DNA of 47,245 nt from a virus (Duplodnaviria; Caudoviricetes), in the IMG/VR virus record IMGVR_UViG_3300031965_000051, positions 1 to 47,245 of that record. The stretch is one strand, 5' to 3'. Positions 13,034 through 47,245 of the stretch are shown here, piece by piece. Every line of letters begins with the position of its first letter. Within the stretch, counting starts at the first letter, position 1. The notes beneath the pieces were generated by a model, which worked only from the letters and a program-made list of their open reading frames with translations, had not been told where the DNA came from and made no database searches. The translations under genes were made by a program, and so were the position numbers.

Positions 13034-13384
13034 ATGGCACGGGCCGAGCTGAAGCTGGAGACGCTGAAGGACCTGAACCTCGGGGCCGTCGGGCTCGTCT
13101 GGGACCAGGAGCTGGCGGTCATCATGCACGACCTGCACGATCGGCCGGGCGTGCCGAAGGCCCGCGAGCTGCACCTCATCCTGCGCGTAGAGCCGATCAG
13201 CGAGCACGGCGGGTGCGAATACGTCCGTGGCGACGTCGCGATTTTCTCGAGGCTGCCCAAACGCAAGACCCGCGAGCTGAACTTCGCGACCGACGTGCAG
13301 GGGAGGCTCATTTTCAACTCCGAGTCGCCGGACTCGGTCGATCAGAACACGCTGTTCGGAAAGGAAACTGCAAGCGATGACTGA
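13034..13384 (+). CDS. Conserved phage early protein (YfdP-like position in a gene pair)
   Basis: AAAGGAG SD; DRPGVPKARELHLILRVEP; overlaps the next gene; family call tentative. Confidence 0.6.
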   Translation: MARAELKLETLKDLNLGAVGLVWDQELAVIMHDLHDRPGVPKARELHLILRVEPISEHGGCEYVRGDVAIFSRLPKRKTRELNFATDVQGRLIFNSESPDSVDQNTLFGKETASDD

Positions 13385-14150
13385 AATCACCTCGGCCTTG
13401 GAATTCCTTCGATCGCAGGCGGTCGCCGCCAAGTCGCCGTTCTTCGCCGCCACCGATCAGGTGCCCAACGCCGTTTGGCTGTGTCGCGACGGCATCTCCG
13501 AACGGATCGAACGCGATCCGCCGCCGCGCGGGCACCGCGTCGACACGCTGGAGAGCCTCGTCGATTCGGTCAAACATTATCACGATCCTGGTGCGACAAG
13601 CCTGTGGTGCTCGTTTGCGGAGATCGTCGCGGTCCTCGACGACGGCGAATACCGCGCGAGCCGGATTACGTTCGACCTGAAACCGAGCGAAGTGCTCGGG
13701 GAGATTGAGAAGCACGCCGGTGTCTCGATGGATCACTCGTCCTTACTGCGGCTGCTGCGTTTTTCGCTGGCCGGGTGCTACGAGGACTATCCGGACTTGC
13801 TGCCGGCCCTTCGGCAGGTGAAGGTCAGCCGGAGCCAATCGTCCGATTCGCGACTCGAGCACGGCGACGAGCAGTTGGGTCGCGAGATCGCCGCCAAGAT
13901 CACGTGCGCTCAGGCGCTGCCCGACGCCGTCATCCTCGAGGTGCCGATCTTCGCGAATGGGGCGCTGCTGGACAGCACGCAATCGATCGAGTGCGGCATC
14001 GACATCGACCCGTTCGCCGGCACGTTCCGATTGCTGCCCGCACCGGACGCGATCGAACAGGCGAAACAGGCGGCCGTGCGAGCGATCTTCGACGTGCTTT
14101 CGCGCGAGCTGGCGGACTTGAAAGTGCCGATCTTCCTCGGCAAGCCGTGA
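13377..14150 (+). CDS. Conserved phage early protein (DUF2303/YfdQ-like)
   Basis: H.VDTLESLVD...LPDAVILEVPIF pattern; coupled to the upstream small gene. Confidence 0.55.
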   Translation: MTEITSALEFLRSQAVAAKSPFFAATDQVPNAVWLCRDGISERIERDPPPRGHRVDTLESLVDSVKHYHDPGATSLWCSFAEIVAVLDDGEYRASRITFDLKPSEVLGEIEKHAGVSMDHSSLLRLLRFSLAGCYEDYPDLLPALRQVKVSRSQSSDSRLEHGDEQLGREIAAKITCAQALPDAVILEVPIFANGALLDSTQSIECGIDIDPFAGTFRLLPAPDAIEQAKQAAVRAIFDVLSRELADLKVPIFLGKP

Positions 14151-14165
14151 GAGGAGGGTTGAACG

Positions 14166-14396
14166 TTGAAAGCCGGAAACGAAGGGGCGGCGCTGCTGGC
14201 GTTTGTCACCAAGACGACGCACCTTGAGATCGTTTGCGAACGCTGTGGAAGGATCAACGTGGAGTTGCCGCGTTTCGTCTCCCGGCTGCTGTACGCCAGA
14301 AAGATGGCCCGCCTCGGTTGGCGGGTGATCGACGGAAAGCCGGTCTGCCCCGCGTGCGCTCACGCCGCCGAGCTGGCCGCCGGGAAGCGGACGTGA
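14166..14396 (+). CDS. Small Zn-finger protein
   Basis: CERCG...GWRVIDGKPVCPAC; paralogous motif in 19137-19352. Confidence 0.65.
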   Translation: MKAGNEGAALLAFVTKTTHLEIVCERCGRINVELPRFVSRLLYARKMARLGWRVIDGKPVCPACAHAAELAAGKRT

Positions 14397-14452
14397 CGAC
14401 GGGAATCGAACCGGGGTGAGCGGATTTTCAGGAGCCGAAAGGACGGATTCCA

Positions 14453-14980
14453 ATGCAAAAGCTACCGGAGGCGGTACTCCAGATCGCGGAGCGGGCGGCG
14501 CGGCGGCATAAGTCGGATCTCGAAGCGGCGGGGCGGCTCGCGACAAAGGAAGTGGTCGCGCTACCGCAGTTCGCTAAGCTCGGGCCGCTTCTGATTGCGT
14601 ACGCGATGCGTCAGTTGGTCTACGAGGCCCGTTGCAACGGCAATCGCGCGTTGAAGCGGGAGAACGGTTTTCACACCGGGCACACGAAGGTGTTCGCCGG
14701 GCGCTCGACGAGCGTCGCGGCGGCCGCTTCAAAATCGTACCTGGAATACAACATCGGTTCGACCGTGCTCGGCGATTTGCTCCCGAACGGTCTGAGGGAG
14801 GTCATGATGGGCGAACGGGCGAAGGGAAACGGCCATCTGTTCAACGCGCGGGTGTGCGAGGCGTTGATCGAGATTGTGCCGGAAGAAAAGCGGGTCCGCG
14901 AAGTGGTCAGCGAGCGTCAGCTGAAGGCGATCTGGACGCGAATCGAGAAGGAGTTTTCCGGCGAAGATCAAGCGGCGTAG
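14453..14980 (+). CDS. Hypothetical protein abutting the TIGR array (candidate Tas partner), 175 aa
   Basis: Its stop codon lies inside the stem of array unit 1. Confidence 0.75.
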   Translation: MQKLPEAVLQIAERAARRHKSDLEAAGRLATKEVVALPQFAKLGPLLIAYAMRQLVYEARCNGNRALKRENGFHTGHTKVFAGRSTSVAAAASKSYLEYNIGSTVLGDLLPNGLREVMMGERAKGNGHLFNARVCEALIEIVPEEKRVREVVSERQLKAIWTRIEKEFSGEDQAA

Positions 14981-15286
14981 GCGAACAATGCACTGAACTC
15001 GAACAAAGACGTGCCGAGGCCGCTTTGCACGCGAAGAAGTGTCTGAAACCGAGAGGCGGTGTGCGTGCGAACTTTGACGCGGCGACAGCACGCCTGAAAC
15101 CGAATCAGCCGGTGCCGCGTTTTTGAATTTCTCCCGGCGAAGGCCGCCCTGAAACCGATGAAGGACGTGCCGGGATTGTGATGTGGCGTCGCACGCGAAA
15201 CCGCAACTGAACTCGATTGTTGTCGTGCGTGCGACGGTTGTTTCGGGGCGAGGGCTTGAATGAAACCGATTGATCGATTGCCCCGA
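14971..15286 (+). ncRNA. TIGR-like stem-loop guide RNA array, 6 dual-spacer units
   Basis: Cores at 14981, 15031, 15082, 15137, 15195 and 15248, each GCGA-N9-TGAA(AC/CT)CGA-N9-TGC closed by its own stem; all 12 spacers are exactly 9 nt and unique. Confidence 0.9.
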
Positions 15287-15307
15287 CTTTTCTGACAGGA
15301 GGTCACG

Positions 15308-16147
15308 ATGGACCGAGCCGAGATTTGCGTGGAGCTTCAGGCGCTCGCCAGGGAGCGGGCCGACTACCTGGGCTTTCGGATCAAGAACGAGAACGGGCTG
15401 CGAGCCAAGGTCGCCAGCACATTAGGCTACGAGACGGACCTCGACGAGACCGCGCGGCGCCGCTTGTTTGATGAGGCCGACAAGTTGATCGCGCAGATCA
15501 GCAAGGGGTCGGTCGATGGCCCGGTTGCGCCGCTGGTCCGCGTGGTGCTGCCGTGTATTGAAAGTTTTGATCGCATGGCGAAGAACCTCGAAAAAGAGAC
15601 GCGCCGCCTGGCGGAGCGCCTGCCCGTGGCCGATTGGGTCGAAGACGAGGAGCAACGCGGGTTTGGCCCTTTGTTGCTGGGGCAGCTCATCGGCGAGACC
15701 GGAGATTTGGCGAACTATCCGTCACCGGGGAAGGTGTGGAAGCGGATGGGATGCGCCCCGTTCGAGAAGGACGGGAAAAACCTGATGCCATCGACGTGGC
15801 GGTCCGGGCGCGAAGGGAAGCTCGACAGCGCCGACTGGCAGGCGATCGGCTACTCGCCGCGACGGCGGAGCATCGCGTATCTGATCGGAGATTGCCTTCA
15901 AAAAGGGAACAAGGGCGGTCCGTATCGGCGGCGCTTCGACGAGGCGAAGGCGGCAATCGCCGTCGAACATCCGGATTACAAGCCGATGCGTTGCCACCTG
16001 CACGGGATGCTGCTGGCGAGCAAGCTGCTGATGAGAAACCTTTGGGACGAATGGACCCGACCGAGCCGCGAGGGGACCCCTGAATCCGATATGGTGCGTG
16101 CGGCCGTCGGTTCCATCTCGTCAGAAACGCTTACTGCTACGCTTTAA
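15308..16147 (+). CDS. Nop/IS110 C-terminal-domain RNA-binding protein lacking RuvC/HNH (TasA-like)
   Basis: AGGAGG SD; coiled coil, then RGFGPLLLGQLIGETGDLANYPSPGKVWKRMGCAP (IS110 Transposase_20/Nop-like), YRRRFDEAK, and SKLLMRNLWDEW; no DEDD N-terminus; adjacent to the guide array. Confidence 0.85.
   Translation: MDRAEICVELQALARERADYLGFRIKNENGLRAKVASTLGYETDLDETARRRLFDEADKLIAQISKGSVDGPVAPLVRVVLPCIESFDRMAKNLEKETRRLAERLPVADWVEDEEQRGFGPLLLGQLIGETGDLANYPSPGKVWKRMGCAPFEKDGKNLMPSTWRSGREGKLDSADWQAIGYSPRRRSIAYLIGDCLQKGNKGGPYRRRFDEAKAAIAVEHPDYKPMRCHLHGMLLASKLLMRNLWDEWTRPSREGTPESDMVRAAVGSISSETLTATL
16051..16116 (+). ncRNA. Seventh TIGR-like unit embedded in the 3' end of the tas CDS
   Basis: GCGA-ggggacccc-TGAATCCGA-tatggtgcg-TGC (16068-16101), closed by ATGGACCCGAC/GTCGGTTCCAT. 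Confidence 0.85.
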
Positions 16148-16420
16148 CCCCCGACCCCCGACCCCCGACCCCCAGGTGAATCATGCTCCTCATCGCCCTG
16201 TTCCTAGCGTTCGTGAGCTACTTCGCCGGCGCTCTCGTCGGCTTTCACCTCGGCGTCCGCTGGGGCCGGCGGCCGGTCGTCCGCGAGTCGTCGCTGGTCG
16301 GACCGAGGGAAGGCGGGCTACAGGAAGACAGGCGCCTGAAGCCCGTAGCCCGTAGCCTGTAGCCCGAAGCCAGTAGCCTGAAGCCGGAATCATTGCGAAA
16401 ACCACGCGGAGGGAAAACCG

Positions 16421-17359
16421 GTGGGCGACGGATTGCCGCTGTTTGAACTGCGGCTGACGGACCGGCTGAGGTTGATCTACGACGCCGGCTTGCCCGCGAG
16501 GGAGCGTGCCGTGCTCTTGGCGCTGAATGAGTTCTACTCGGTCGAGGCGGGCGTCTGCTGGCCGAGCCACGCTCAGCTCGCGGCGAAGGCGGGCGTCAGC
16601 GTGCCGACCGTGAAACGCGCCCTCAAAGTTTTGAGGGGATCCGACACGGAACCTAAGATCGTCACGACTGAACCGACTAAGACCGCGATGGGGTTCCAAT
16701 CGGTGCTCCGCTACCGGATCGACTTCGAGTGTCTGCATCAAAAAGTGTTCGATCTTGCAGCAAGGTCACACAGAGCTACCGGTGAGGTCACCGTGACCCC
16801 ACCGCTAGGTCATGGTGAGCTAGCCGCTAGGTCACAGAGAGCTAGCACTAAGGAACCTCCCACTAGGACCTCCCAAGGTAACCAAGGTTCTAACCAGGAA
16901 TCTTTAGGGGGGGTGCGGGGGGGAATTGGGGGTCGGGGATCGGGGATCGGGGATCGGGAAGGCAGGTCCCCAGTCCGCGAGGCCGATGTCGCGGCGGTGT
17001 TGGGGCCCGTGTACCGGAAGCTCAGGCTCGCGCCGGGCGACGACGACTGCGTGCTGCGGCAGCTCGGGGCGATGGCGGTCGCCGGCCGCGCGCCGCCCGC
17101 GTGGATCCATGGCGCGGCACAGGCGACCCTCGACAAGTTGGGGCCGGCGCACCCACGGCGAATGGGTTACCTACTGCGCCTGGTCCGCTCGAGCGTCGAG
17201 GCGGCCGGGCTCGATTGGGAGGCGTTGTTGCGGCAGACGAAACCGCCGCCGCCCTGCTGCCTCGCCCGCGATCCGCCGGCGGCGGAGGTGGCGCGCGTGG
17301 CCGAGGCGACGGCAAGACGCGCTGCGGGCGCCCGTAGCCCGGTAGCCCGTAGCCTGTAG
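16421..17359 (+). CDS. Replication initiator with N-terminal HTH
   Basis: CWPSHAQLAAKAGVSVPTVKRALKVL...YRIDF (HTH_36-like); iterons follow in the linker region. Confidence 0.8.
   Translation: MGDGLPLFELRLTDRLRLIYDAGLPARERAVLLALNEFYSVEAGVCWPSHAQLAAKAGVSVPTVKRALKVLRGSDTEPKIVTTEPTKTAMGFQSVLRYRIDFECLHQKVFDLAARSHRATGEVTVTPPLGHGELAARSQRASTKEPPTRTSQGNQGSNQESLGGVRGGIGGRGSGIGDREGRSPVREADVAAVLGPVYRKLRLAPGDDDCVLRQLGAMAVAGRAPPAWIHGAAQATLDKLGPAHPRRMGYLLRLVRSSVEAAGLDWEALLRQTKPPPPCCLARDPPAAEVARVAEATARRAAGARSPVARSL
16763..16846. repeat. Putative origin: four 22-bp-periodic iterons (AGGTCA...GAGCTA)
   Basis: AGGTCA at 16763, 16785, 16807 and 16829, inside the initiator gene as in lambda O. Confidence 0.75.
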
Positions 17360-24060: not shown

Positions 24061-24240
24061 TGTTCTCGCTTTCTGGGAAACCCGGGGAAACGGCTCCGGG
24101 GTCCCCCCCCGAGCCCCCCCGAGGCGCGCGTTTGGGGTTTTGCGTTTTTTTTGTCGATACGGGGGAAAAAATTTCGTTGTTGTTGTTGCGGTAGATGTGC
24201 GGAAAGCCTTGATCTAACGTCACTTAGGGAGATCAGGCCC

Positions 24241-47095: not shown

Positions 47096-47245
47096 ATGGC
47101 CAACGATGTCGTCATTCGCCTGGCGGGGCAAGAGGCCGACCTGATTCGTGCGTTCCAGCGCACCGAGTCGGAGATGGACAAAATTCTCAAGCGCCTCGGC
47201 GGCCTGGAGGGTCAGAGCAAGCGGAGCGGGAAAGAGGTCAAGGGA
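47096..47245 (+). CDS. 5' start of the tape measure gene (continues at position 128)
   Basis: ATG 47096 is in frame with the 56..1546 ORF via the terminal overlap. Confidence 0.8.
   Translation, partial: MANDVVIRLAGQEADLIRAFQRTESEMDKILKRLGGLEGQSKRSGKEVKG
47119..47245. repeat. Terminal direct repeat, copy 2
   Basis: Identical to 1-127. Confidence 0.95.

Follow-up and report, generated by a model that had tools for sequence, protein, structure and literature searches.

In the published work on TIGR systems, as given in its available texts, a hairpin unit is cut out as one tigRNA and bound by a Tas dimer, and its two spacers, A and B, pair with opposite strands. The layout is converging, spacer A being followed by the reverse complement of spacer B, as set out in the TIGR rule and the oligonucleotide table of Faure 2025 (PMC12045711). 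The main text of the same paper gives an 18-bp target and reports no obvious covariation between A and B, and the published TasR and TasA complexes have nine pairs per spacer with DNA, on 18-bp synthetic targets. TaTasR accepts gaps of 1 to 2 bp and mismatches at the edges (Faure 2025, PMC12045711), and Table S3 of that paper lists a “1 bp spacer A/B overlap” substrate for lane 8 of fig. S7D, whose outcome is absent from the main text. Nuclease-less TasA represses transcription, intragenic TIGR units are known, and no acquisition machinery is known for TIGR, according to the text of Xu 2026 (10.64898/2026.09.09.750476). Both Faure 2025 and Xu 2026 list as open questions what TIGR-Tas naturally targets and what its biological role is.

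The stretch of DNA analyzed here (the window, 47,245 nucleotides) is a virus record carrying integrase, replication initiator, portal, head protease, and major head genes. Its positions 1 to 127 and 47119 to 47245 are identical and lie 47118 bases apart, which suggests a terminal direct repeat of ∼127 bases and a record of a circular phage that is probably complete. The intergenic DNA between positions 1584 and 28247 contains many short 7-nt tandem repeats built from a few related units.

The region at 14,982 to 16,147 is a phage stem-loop TIGR-TasA locus in which box C is CGA and box D is UG, as its architecture agrees with the stem-loop TIGR arrays described by Faure 2025 and Xu 2026, including the presence of a unit within the tas gene. 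A search of both strands of the whole window for the pattern CGA-[9 nt A]-TGAANNCGA-[9 nt B]-TG gave seven units. Each lies on the + strand, six at 14982 to 15280 and the seventh at 16069 to 16100 (Table 1). Each unit reads CGA-9-UG / CGA-9-UG and thus has two spacers, framed by the same boxes at the edge and in the loop. A closing stem of variable sequence is predicted in all seven units, with fold z scores from −3.2 to +0.5 that are weakest for units 1 and 7. The array region had no match in Rfam at the gathering threshold, and a scan of positions 14100 to 16450 found no sigma-70-like promoter and no + strand terminator.

Table 1. Coordinates of the array units and flanking genes in the window
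Feature	Position	Strand	Spacer A	Spacer B	A9:B9	Description
Partner gene	14453..14980	+				175 aa, all-helical; directly upstream of array; model pLDDT 88
Unit 1	14978..15017	+	14985-14993	15003-15011	C:G	Box C 14982-14984, loop 14994-15002, box D 15012-15013
Unit 2	15024..15072	+	15035-15043	15053-15061	C:G	Hairpin, fold z −3.0
Unit 3	15076..15121	+	15086-15094	15104-15112	C:G
Unit 4	15132..15175	+	15141-15149	15159-15167	C:G	T:A in related contig
Unit 5	15187..15236	+	15199-15207	15217-15225	C:G	Fold z −3.2; C:C in related contig
Unit 6	15243..15286	+	15252-15260	15270-15278	A:T
tasA	15308..16147	+				279-aa coiled-coil and Nop-domain protein, no nuclease domain
Unit 7	16063..16105	+	16072-16080	16090-16098	C:G	Within low-confidence 3' tail of tasA

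The six-unit array sits between the partner gene and tasA. The AlphaFold model of TasA (pLDDT 93.5) begins its coiled-coil helix at residue 3 and comprises only the coiled-coil plus Nop part, with neither an N-terminal RuvC nor an HNH domain. All ten Foldseek matches with E values of <0.001 were TIGR TasR or TasH chains (best match, 9mty; E = 1.7e-5; TM = 0.52), and IS110 recombinases came next (E = 0.03 to 0.05). The sequence matched PHROG 4285, “transposase” (E = 1.9e-7), and weakly TaTasR (E = 0.11), and a Pfam search gave no family. A profile search returned 2944 clusters at an E value of <0.001, and the best 150 of the 2944 were all from the protein's own clade.

A homologue of the partner gene is located near tas in 50 of the 61 loci having >1.5 kb of upstream sequence. 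The partner protein matched none of the Pfam and PHROG families and no PDB sequence below an E value of 0.1; its best Atlas score (0.88) was to unnamed viral clusters, and its best VIA-align Z score (5.7) fell on generic helices. It is a candidate effector, processing, or acquisition partner.

The initial annotation of this DNA claimed that the last bases of the two spacers (A9 and B9) covary, being C:G in six units and A:T in unit 6, and predicted seven 17-bp targets in which the two guides share one central base pair. The pattern search confirmed Watson-Crick complementarity in all seven units, and the seven predicted 17-mers are correctly derived from them. The window by itself is weak evidence for covariation: it contains one compensatory event, and shuffling of B9 among the seven units retains all pairs with a P of 1/7. 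Its 6/7 C:G units are also untypical of the family, in which A9 is C in 10%, and make it an extreme case.

Covariation was also read across the family. Alignment of 120 homologues gave 107 loci, of which 106 related loci remained after the window's own locus was dropped. To be counted, a unit had to follow a fixed 9-9-9 pattern, its boxes had to match, and its stem needed three or more pairs; units of other lengths fell outside the count. There were 773 matches in 96 of the 106 loci on the tas strand versus 1 on the opposite strand. After units differing by no more than 4 mismatches had been merged, 595 distinct units from 80 loci were left. A9:B9 was Watson-Crick in 264 of these (44%), against 138 expected from the margins; within-locus permutation gave a mean of 27.6% and a maximum of 32.8% in 1000 permutations (z = 11). 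A9:B9 was the sole covarying pair among the 81 A-B position pairs, all others having z values of ≤2.8. Its mutual information, 0.29 bit, was seven times that of the next best pair (0.043 bit; median, 0.012 bit), so that the covariation noticed in the window holds in homologous arrays. G·U combinations were also in excess (G/T, 107 versus 86 expected; T/G, 70 versus 47 expected), and like-with-like combinations were depleted. Together, Watson-Crick and G·U combinations account for 441 of the 595 units (74%), and 154 (26%) have neither. Further units from full virus records, mostly from one record (G020), were Watson-Crick in 25 of 40 cases versus 11.3 expected.

The bases at 9:9 are not fixed repeat bases, because most loci hold several Watson-Crick pair types (at least two in 42 of the 52 loci with at least five units). 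Position 9 is partly array specific, with a within-locus identity at A9 of 0.33 versus 0.28 (z = 5.8), and one pair type dominates at locus L071, where 11 of 16 units are G/T. Across the family, positions 3, 5, and 6 of both spacers are G rich and T poor, and C is rare at positions 1, 2, and 9.

Record G020 also contains 36-nt dual-repeat-like TIGR units in short runs between small genes over ∼28 kb (L319, 4500 to 17200, and L320, 3100 to 12120). Only one tas homologue was found in this record; a particular spacer B recurs four times, and an entire unit recurs twice. The 59 distinct units of these 36-nt arrays have 31 Watson-Crick (mostly C:G), 9 G·U, and 19 other combinations at 9:9.

The target span was estimated independently of position 9. 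If guides match coding DNA, both halves of a guide share a reading frame at the correct spacing. A three-periodic Markov model was trained on the open reading frames (ORFs) of these loci with arrays masked, and A1-8 plus the reverse complement of B1-8 was scored at every gap, with other same-locus pairings as the comparison. Of 602 units, 79 in ORFs were dropped and 9 had no partner, leaving 514 intergenic units. The fit was best at a gap of 1, i.e., 17 bp (z = 3.9; 3.5 by locus bootstrap), with z values of 0.0 at gap 0 (16 bp), 2.0 at gap 2 (18 bp), and −0.3 at gap 3. Gap 1 was always best with Markov orders 2 to 4 (z = 3.1 to 3.9, versus 1.3 to 2.4 for gap 2). Units pairing at 9:9 had z values of 3.8 at gap 1 and 1.3 at gap 2, and nonpairing units had values of 1.2 and 1.7. 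The gap 1 signal was strongest in G·U units (z = 2.8 to 3.7); in the Watson-Crick subset, the class of all seven window units, it was 1.6 to 2.0 versus 0.7 to 1.9 for gap 2. Simulated true sites gave a z value of 9.3. The test is blind modulo 3, and two other options also scored, namely, gap 4 (z = 3.4) and the phase-equivalent swapped arrangement at gap 1 (z = 2.95); gap 1 was chosen among these phase-equivalent options because of the 9:9 covariation. Same-strand arrangements gave z values of −2.4 to 0.0.

As a positive control, 310 distinct units from 35 of 44 TasH-clade loci were analyzed in the same way and gave z values of 3.1 to 4.3 at gap 0, 1.2 to 2.0 at gap 1, and about −1 at gap 2. 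This is the published 8+8 arrangement, and the frame test therefore recovers a known geometry. Position 9 in the TasH clade is A in 80% and shows no 9:9 covariation. A universal 17-bp footprint for all TIGR systems is ruled out by the 16 bp of this clade.

The most probable explanation, which we consider likely, is that the guides of this stem-loop array, located next to a gene for a TasA that lacks a nuclease, recognize a 17-bp target in DNA whose central base pair is shared, the ninth base of each spacer pairing with a different strand of it. If the array is expressed, each hairpin would be released as one tigRNA and loaded on a TasA dimer. The dimer would open a 17-bp site at which spacer A pairs with nine bottom-strand bases and spacer B with nine top-strand bases, both including the central pair. 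With no nuclease, RNA-guided binding by this TasA would presumably block transcription, as with other TasA proteins. In G·U combinations, one of the two ninth bases would form a normal pair with the site and the other a wobble. The geometry may be elastic: 17 bp would be the chief natural form, accompanied by minorities of 18-bp and 16-bp sites, and the 154 nonpairing units contain 21 with a 2-bp overlap pattern versus 11.9 ± 2.8 expected, an excess that hints at the 16-bp minority. The guides are likely directed at coding DNA in the host or in other mobile elements rather than in the phage itself. The 17-bp target of the initial annotation thus gains support from the covariation and from the position-9-free frame test, but the pairing rule is not strict and no natural target was found for the seven guides in the sequences searched.

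Several lines of evidence bear on whether the central base is read from DNA or whether A9 forms an intramolecular RNA base pair with B9, the alternative offered by the initial annotation. Such a pair would lie within the tigRNA and span the two-fold axis of the Tas dimer, and only 8 bases per spacer would be read, the site being 8+1+8 with an unread central DNA pair. Enrichment of Watson-Crick and G·U combinations is also the signature expected of such an RNA pair, the frame test on positions 1 to 8 would give a 17-bp span under this model too, and the array specificity of position 9, like its near-fixed A in the TasH clade, is in keeping with it. First, taken as the central base of the target, A9 agrees with the flanking context in Watson-Crick units (within-locus permutation P = 0.002 to 0.004), which argues against an RNA pair. 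With codon phase alone, however, the centre effect is absent in Watson-Crick units (z = −0.1) and weak in G·U units read as G:C centres (z = 1.7), and an array-intrinsic neighbor bias may therefore underlie the context fit of A9. Second, position 9 continues its own half also in nonpairing units (z = 2.6 and 3.5; global permutation). Third, G·U makes up 177 of the 441 pairs at 9:9 (40%) versus 82 of 1663 adjacent-stem pairs (5%), a share more easily explained by a single wobble with DNA than by a structural pair in the RNA. Fourth, the solved TasR and TasA complexes, as described in the published texts, pair all nine bases with DNA, and none of the seven predicted folds of the window units joins A9 to B9. 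Among 51 loci, the C:G share rises with GC content (rho = 0.37; P = 0.007) and the A:T share falls (rho = −0.36; P = 0.011). A pair within the RNA is less favored than a shared DNA base, and we regard it as unlikely.

The complementarity might alternatively be a footprint of acquisition, both halves deriving from a single 17-bp donor with a shared base, and target binding would then accept 16 to 20 bp with no need of position 9. This is compatible with the shared-base reading above, and as a separate explanation it seems quite improbable. The tolerance of TaTasR for gaps and edge mismatches is consistent with it, as is the conserved partner gene that accompanies the array. Also in its favor, in a related contig from another study (run X2; single contigs, depth of 2.7 to 4.6) stems and loops are kept, the spacers of units 4 to 6 are replaced in place within unchanged stems, and unit 7 is identical. 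Unit 4 undergoes a double change from C:G to T:A, which speaks for a shared central base, unit 6 stays A:T, and unit 5 becomes C:C, which speaks against it. Units 1 and 6 retain the 3' ends of both spacers, and unit 1 differs only in outer bases. A footprint should decay to random mismatches, yet among non-Watson-Crick units G·U is overrepresented and A·A, T·T, and G·G are underrepresented, a skew that points to selection on pairing; the absence of known acquisition machinery in the text of Xu 2026 (10.64898/2026.09.09.750476) also stands against it. Spacer B of unit 6 in the X2 contig is the reverse complement of spacer B of window unit 3; template switching within the array, or a guide directed against a rival array, might account for this.

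Ordinary 18-bp abutting targets, with the 9:9 pattern being scaffold-adjacent bases inherited in unit duplication, are very unlikely, since the covariation survives within-locus permutation, pair types are mixed in most arrays, and units that pair score higher at gap 1 than at gap 2, despite the C:G common to six of the seven window units, arrays such as L071 that are dominated by one pair type, the small positive gap 2 signal (z of about 2), the 18-bp matches of unit 3 in phage head-protease genes described below, and the statement in the main text of Faure 2025 (PMC12045711) that covariation is not obvious.

A search for targets in phage sequences, as proposed along with the 17-bp prediction, gave no enrichment at 17 bp. 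No perfect gap 1 site for any of the 602 guides was found in the window, in the related loci, or in most of 23 of the 25 virus records, and one-mismatch gap 1 matches (31 units) were within the range of the controls (19 to 31). Near matches in a guide's own record (16 versus 10.8, of 251) were not beyond control. Self-targeting was rejected, the window having no site with <2 mismatches in 16 in any arrangement tried; unit 3 (∼13140 to 13156) and unit 5 (∼24177 to 24193) each have a 15/17 near match in the window, which is not beyond the family-wide control. Scans of IMG/VR, with units 2 and 3 only, returned 40 and 109 stretches, respectively, the noise level for 16 specified bases, and the predicted central C showed no excess among their gap 1 matches (0/6 for unit 2 and 15/54 for unit 3).

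Two individual cases are anecdotes, the first for 18 bp and the second for 17 bp, and neither of them is significant. Unit 3 has six gap 2 matches in one head-protease gene family homologous to the window's own gene, two of them with the exact 18-bp centre. A guide at L061 (1078 to 1110), in a 17-bp reading with a G centre, encodes LWIEWN, a motif conserved at the C terminus of tas homologues, and has matches with 1 or 2 mismatches in 10 tas loci. Guides directed against tas genes of rival phages were rejected as a general rule: peptide-level enrichment was absent (2 versus 0.8 at the top threshold), and none of 120 collection matches lay in a tas homologue.

The same pattern can be read by eye in published arrays. 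Among the visible units of Table S1 of Faure 2025, 9:9 pairing occurs in 8 of 8 in ParTIGR, with four pair types, in 3 of 6 in TaTIGR, and in 2 of the 4 that parse cleanly in PlTIGR, plus one G·U. The Escherichia coli wcaD site cut by TaTasR (Table S3) has 6 of 9 Watson-Crick spacer A pairs in the overlap register versus 4 of 9 (7 with wobbles) in the 18-bp register, and the text of Faure 2025 (PMC12045711) gives “6 of 9” spacer A pairs for it. We tentatively propose, as a conjecture of somewhat less than even standing, that TIGR systems with 9-nt spacers generally, including the dual-repeat TasR editors, have a 17-bp site with a shared centre as their main natural geometry; that this is a relic of the overlapping core of IS110 bridge RNAs; and that the 18-bp rule is a tolerated synthetic case. 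On this reading, guides would have to be designed, and natural targets sought, anew at 17 bp. The extension to TasR draws on two published arrays read by eye and the 36-nt arrays of G020.

If natural sites span 17 bp, 18-bp searches would miss them, and a rerun over the ∼83,000 catalogued tigRNAs would be a direct test. The geometry, if true, would matter for the design of guides and the prediction of off-targets with TasR and TasA tools, would constrain models of paired-spacer acquisition, and would tie TIGR guides to the overlapping core of the IS110 bridge RNA. With the coding-frame test, the geometry of any TIGR clade can be read without known targets.

The closest known systems are the stem-loop TIGR-TasA systems PlTasA, BlTasA, and MbTasA (Faure 2025, PMC12045711; Xu 2026, 10.64898/2026.09.09.750476; Guan 2026, 10.64898/2026.08.11.744272). 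Compared to these, as described in the available texts, the locus has CGA as box C, covarying A9:B9, and a natural site that we infer to be 17 bp rather than 9+9 = 18 bp. The published lack of covariation does not hold here, given the permutation z of 11 and mutual information of 0.29 bit, and the frame test favors 17 bp over the 18 bp of the abutting 9+9 rule reported for TaTasR, CsTasR, and PlTasA (z = 3.9 versus 2.0). The locus also has a conserved upstream partner gene, in contrast to the generally single-protein TIGR systems of the Faure 2025 main text (PMC12045711).

Dual-repeat TIGR-TasR (TaTasR, 9MTY; ParTasR) shares with the locus the Nop fold (TM = 0.52), a UG box D, a nearly identical loop, and converging opposite-strand spacers, but has a RuvC domain and a constant edge repeat that are absent here. 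The pairing seen by eye at 9:9 in ParTIGR and TaTIGR indicates that covariation may be no true difference from TasR. TIGR-TasH (Salicola phage CGphi29) shares the fold family (9vzx, 9w03, and 9w04) and the two-strand guide logic and differs in its 8-nt spacers, its mostly A ninth base, its lack of covariation, its 16-bp abutting site, and its HNH nuclease.

The initial annotation likened the converging guides to those of IS110. The converging layout stands, as it is the published TIGR rule, but the closest system is TIGR-TasA and not IS110. In the IS110 bridge recombinase IS621, according to the text of Durrant 2024 (PMC11208160), the guides likewise pair with opposite strands and overlap at the centre, in a 2-bp core, and its fold has a distant likeness to that of TasA (E = 0.04; TM = 0.39). 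IS110 differs in having a RuvC-like recombinase domain, which is absent here, and one bridge RNA with target and donor loops, the donor matching the ends of the element; the locus has many short guides, in seven separate hairpin units, with a proposed 1-bp overlap and a variable centre, and no guide-window match with <2 mismatches in 16. The 17-bp overlap geometry is absent from the searched texts of the TIGR-Tas literature (including PMC12045711, PMC13421893, 10.64898/2026.09.09.750476, 10.64898/2026.08.11.744272, 10.64898/2026.07.30.739390, 10.64898/2026.10.21.760802, and 10.64898/2026.07.15.738680). The TIGR system itself is known, and what this locus likely adds is a 17-bp targeting geometry that has gone unrecognized so far.
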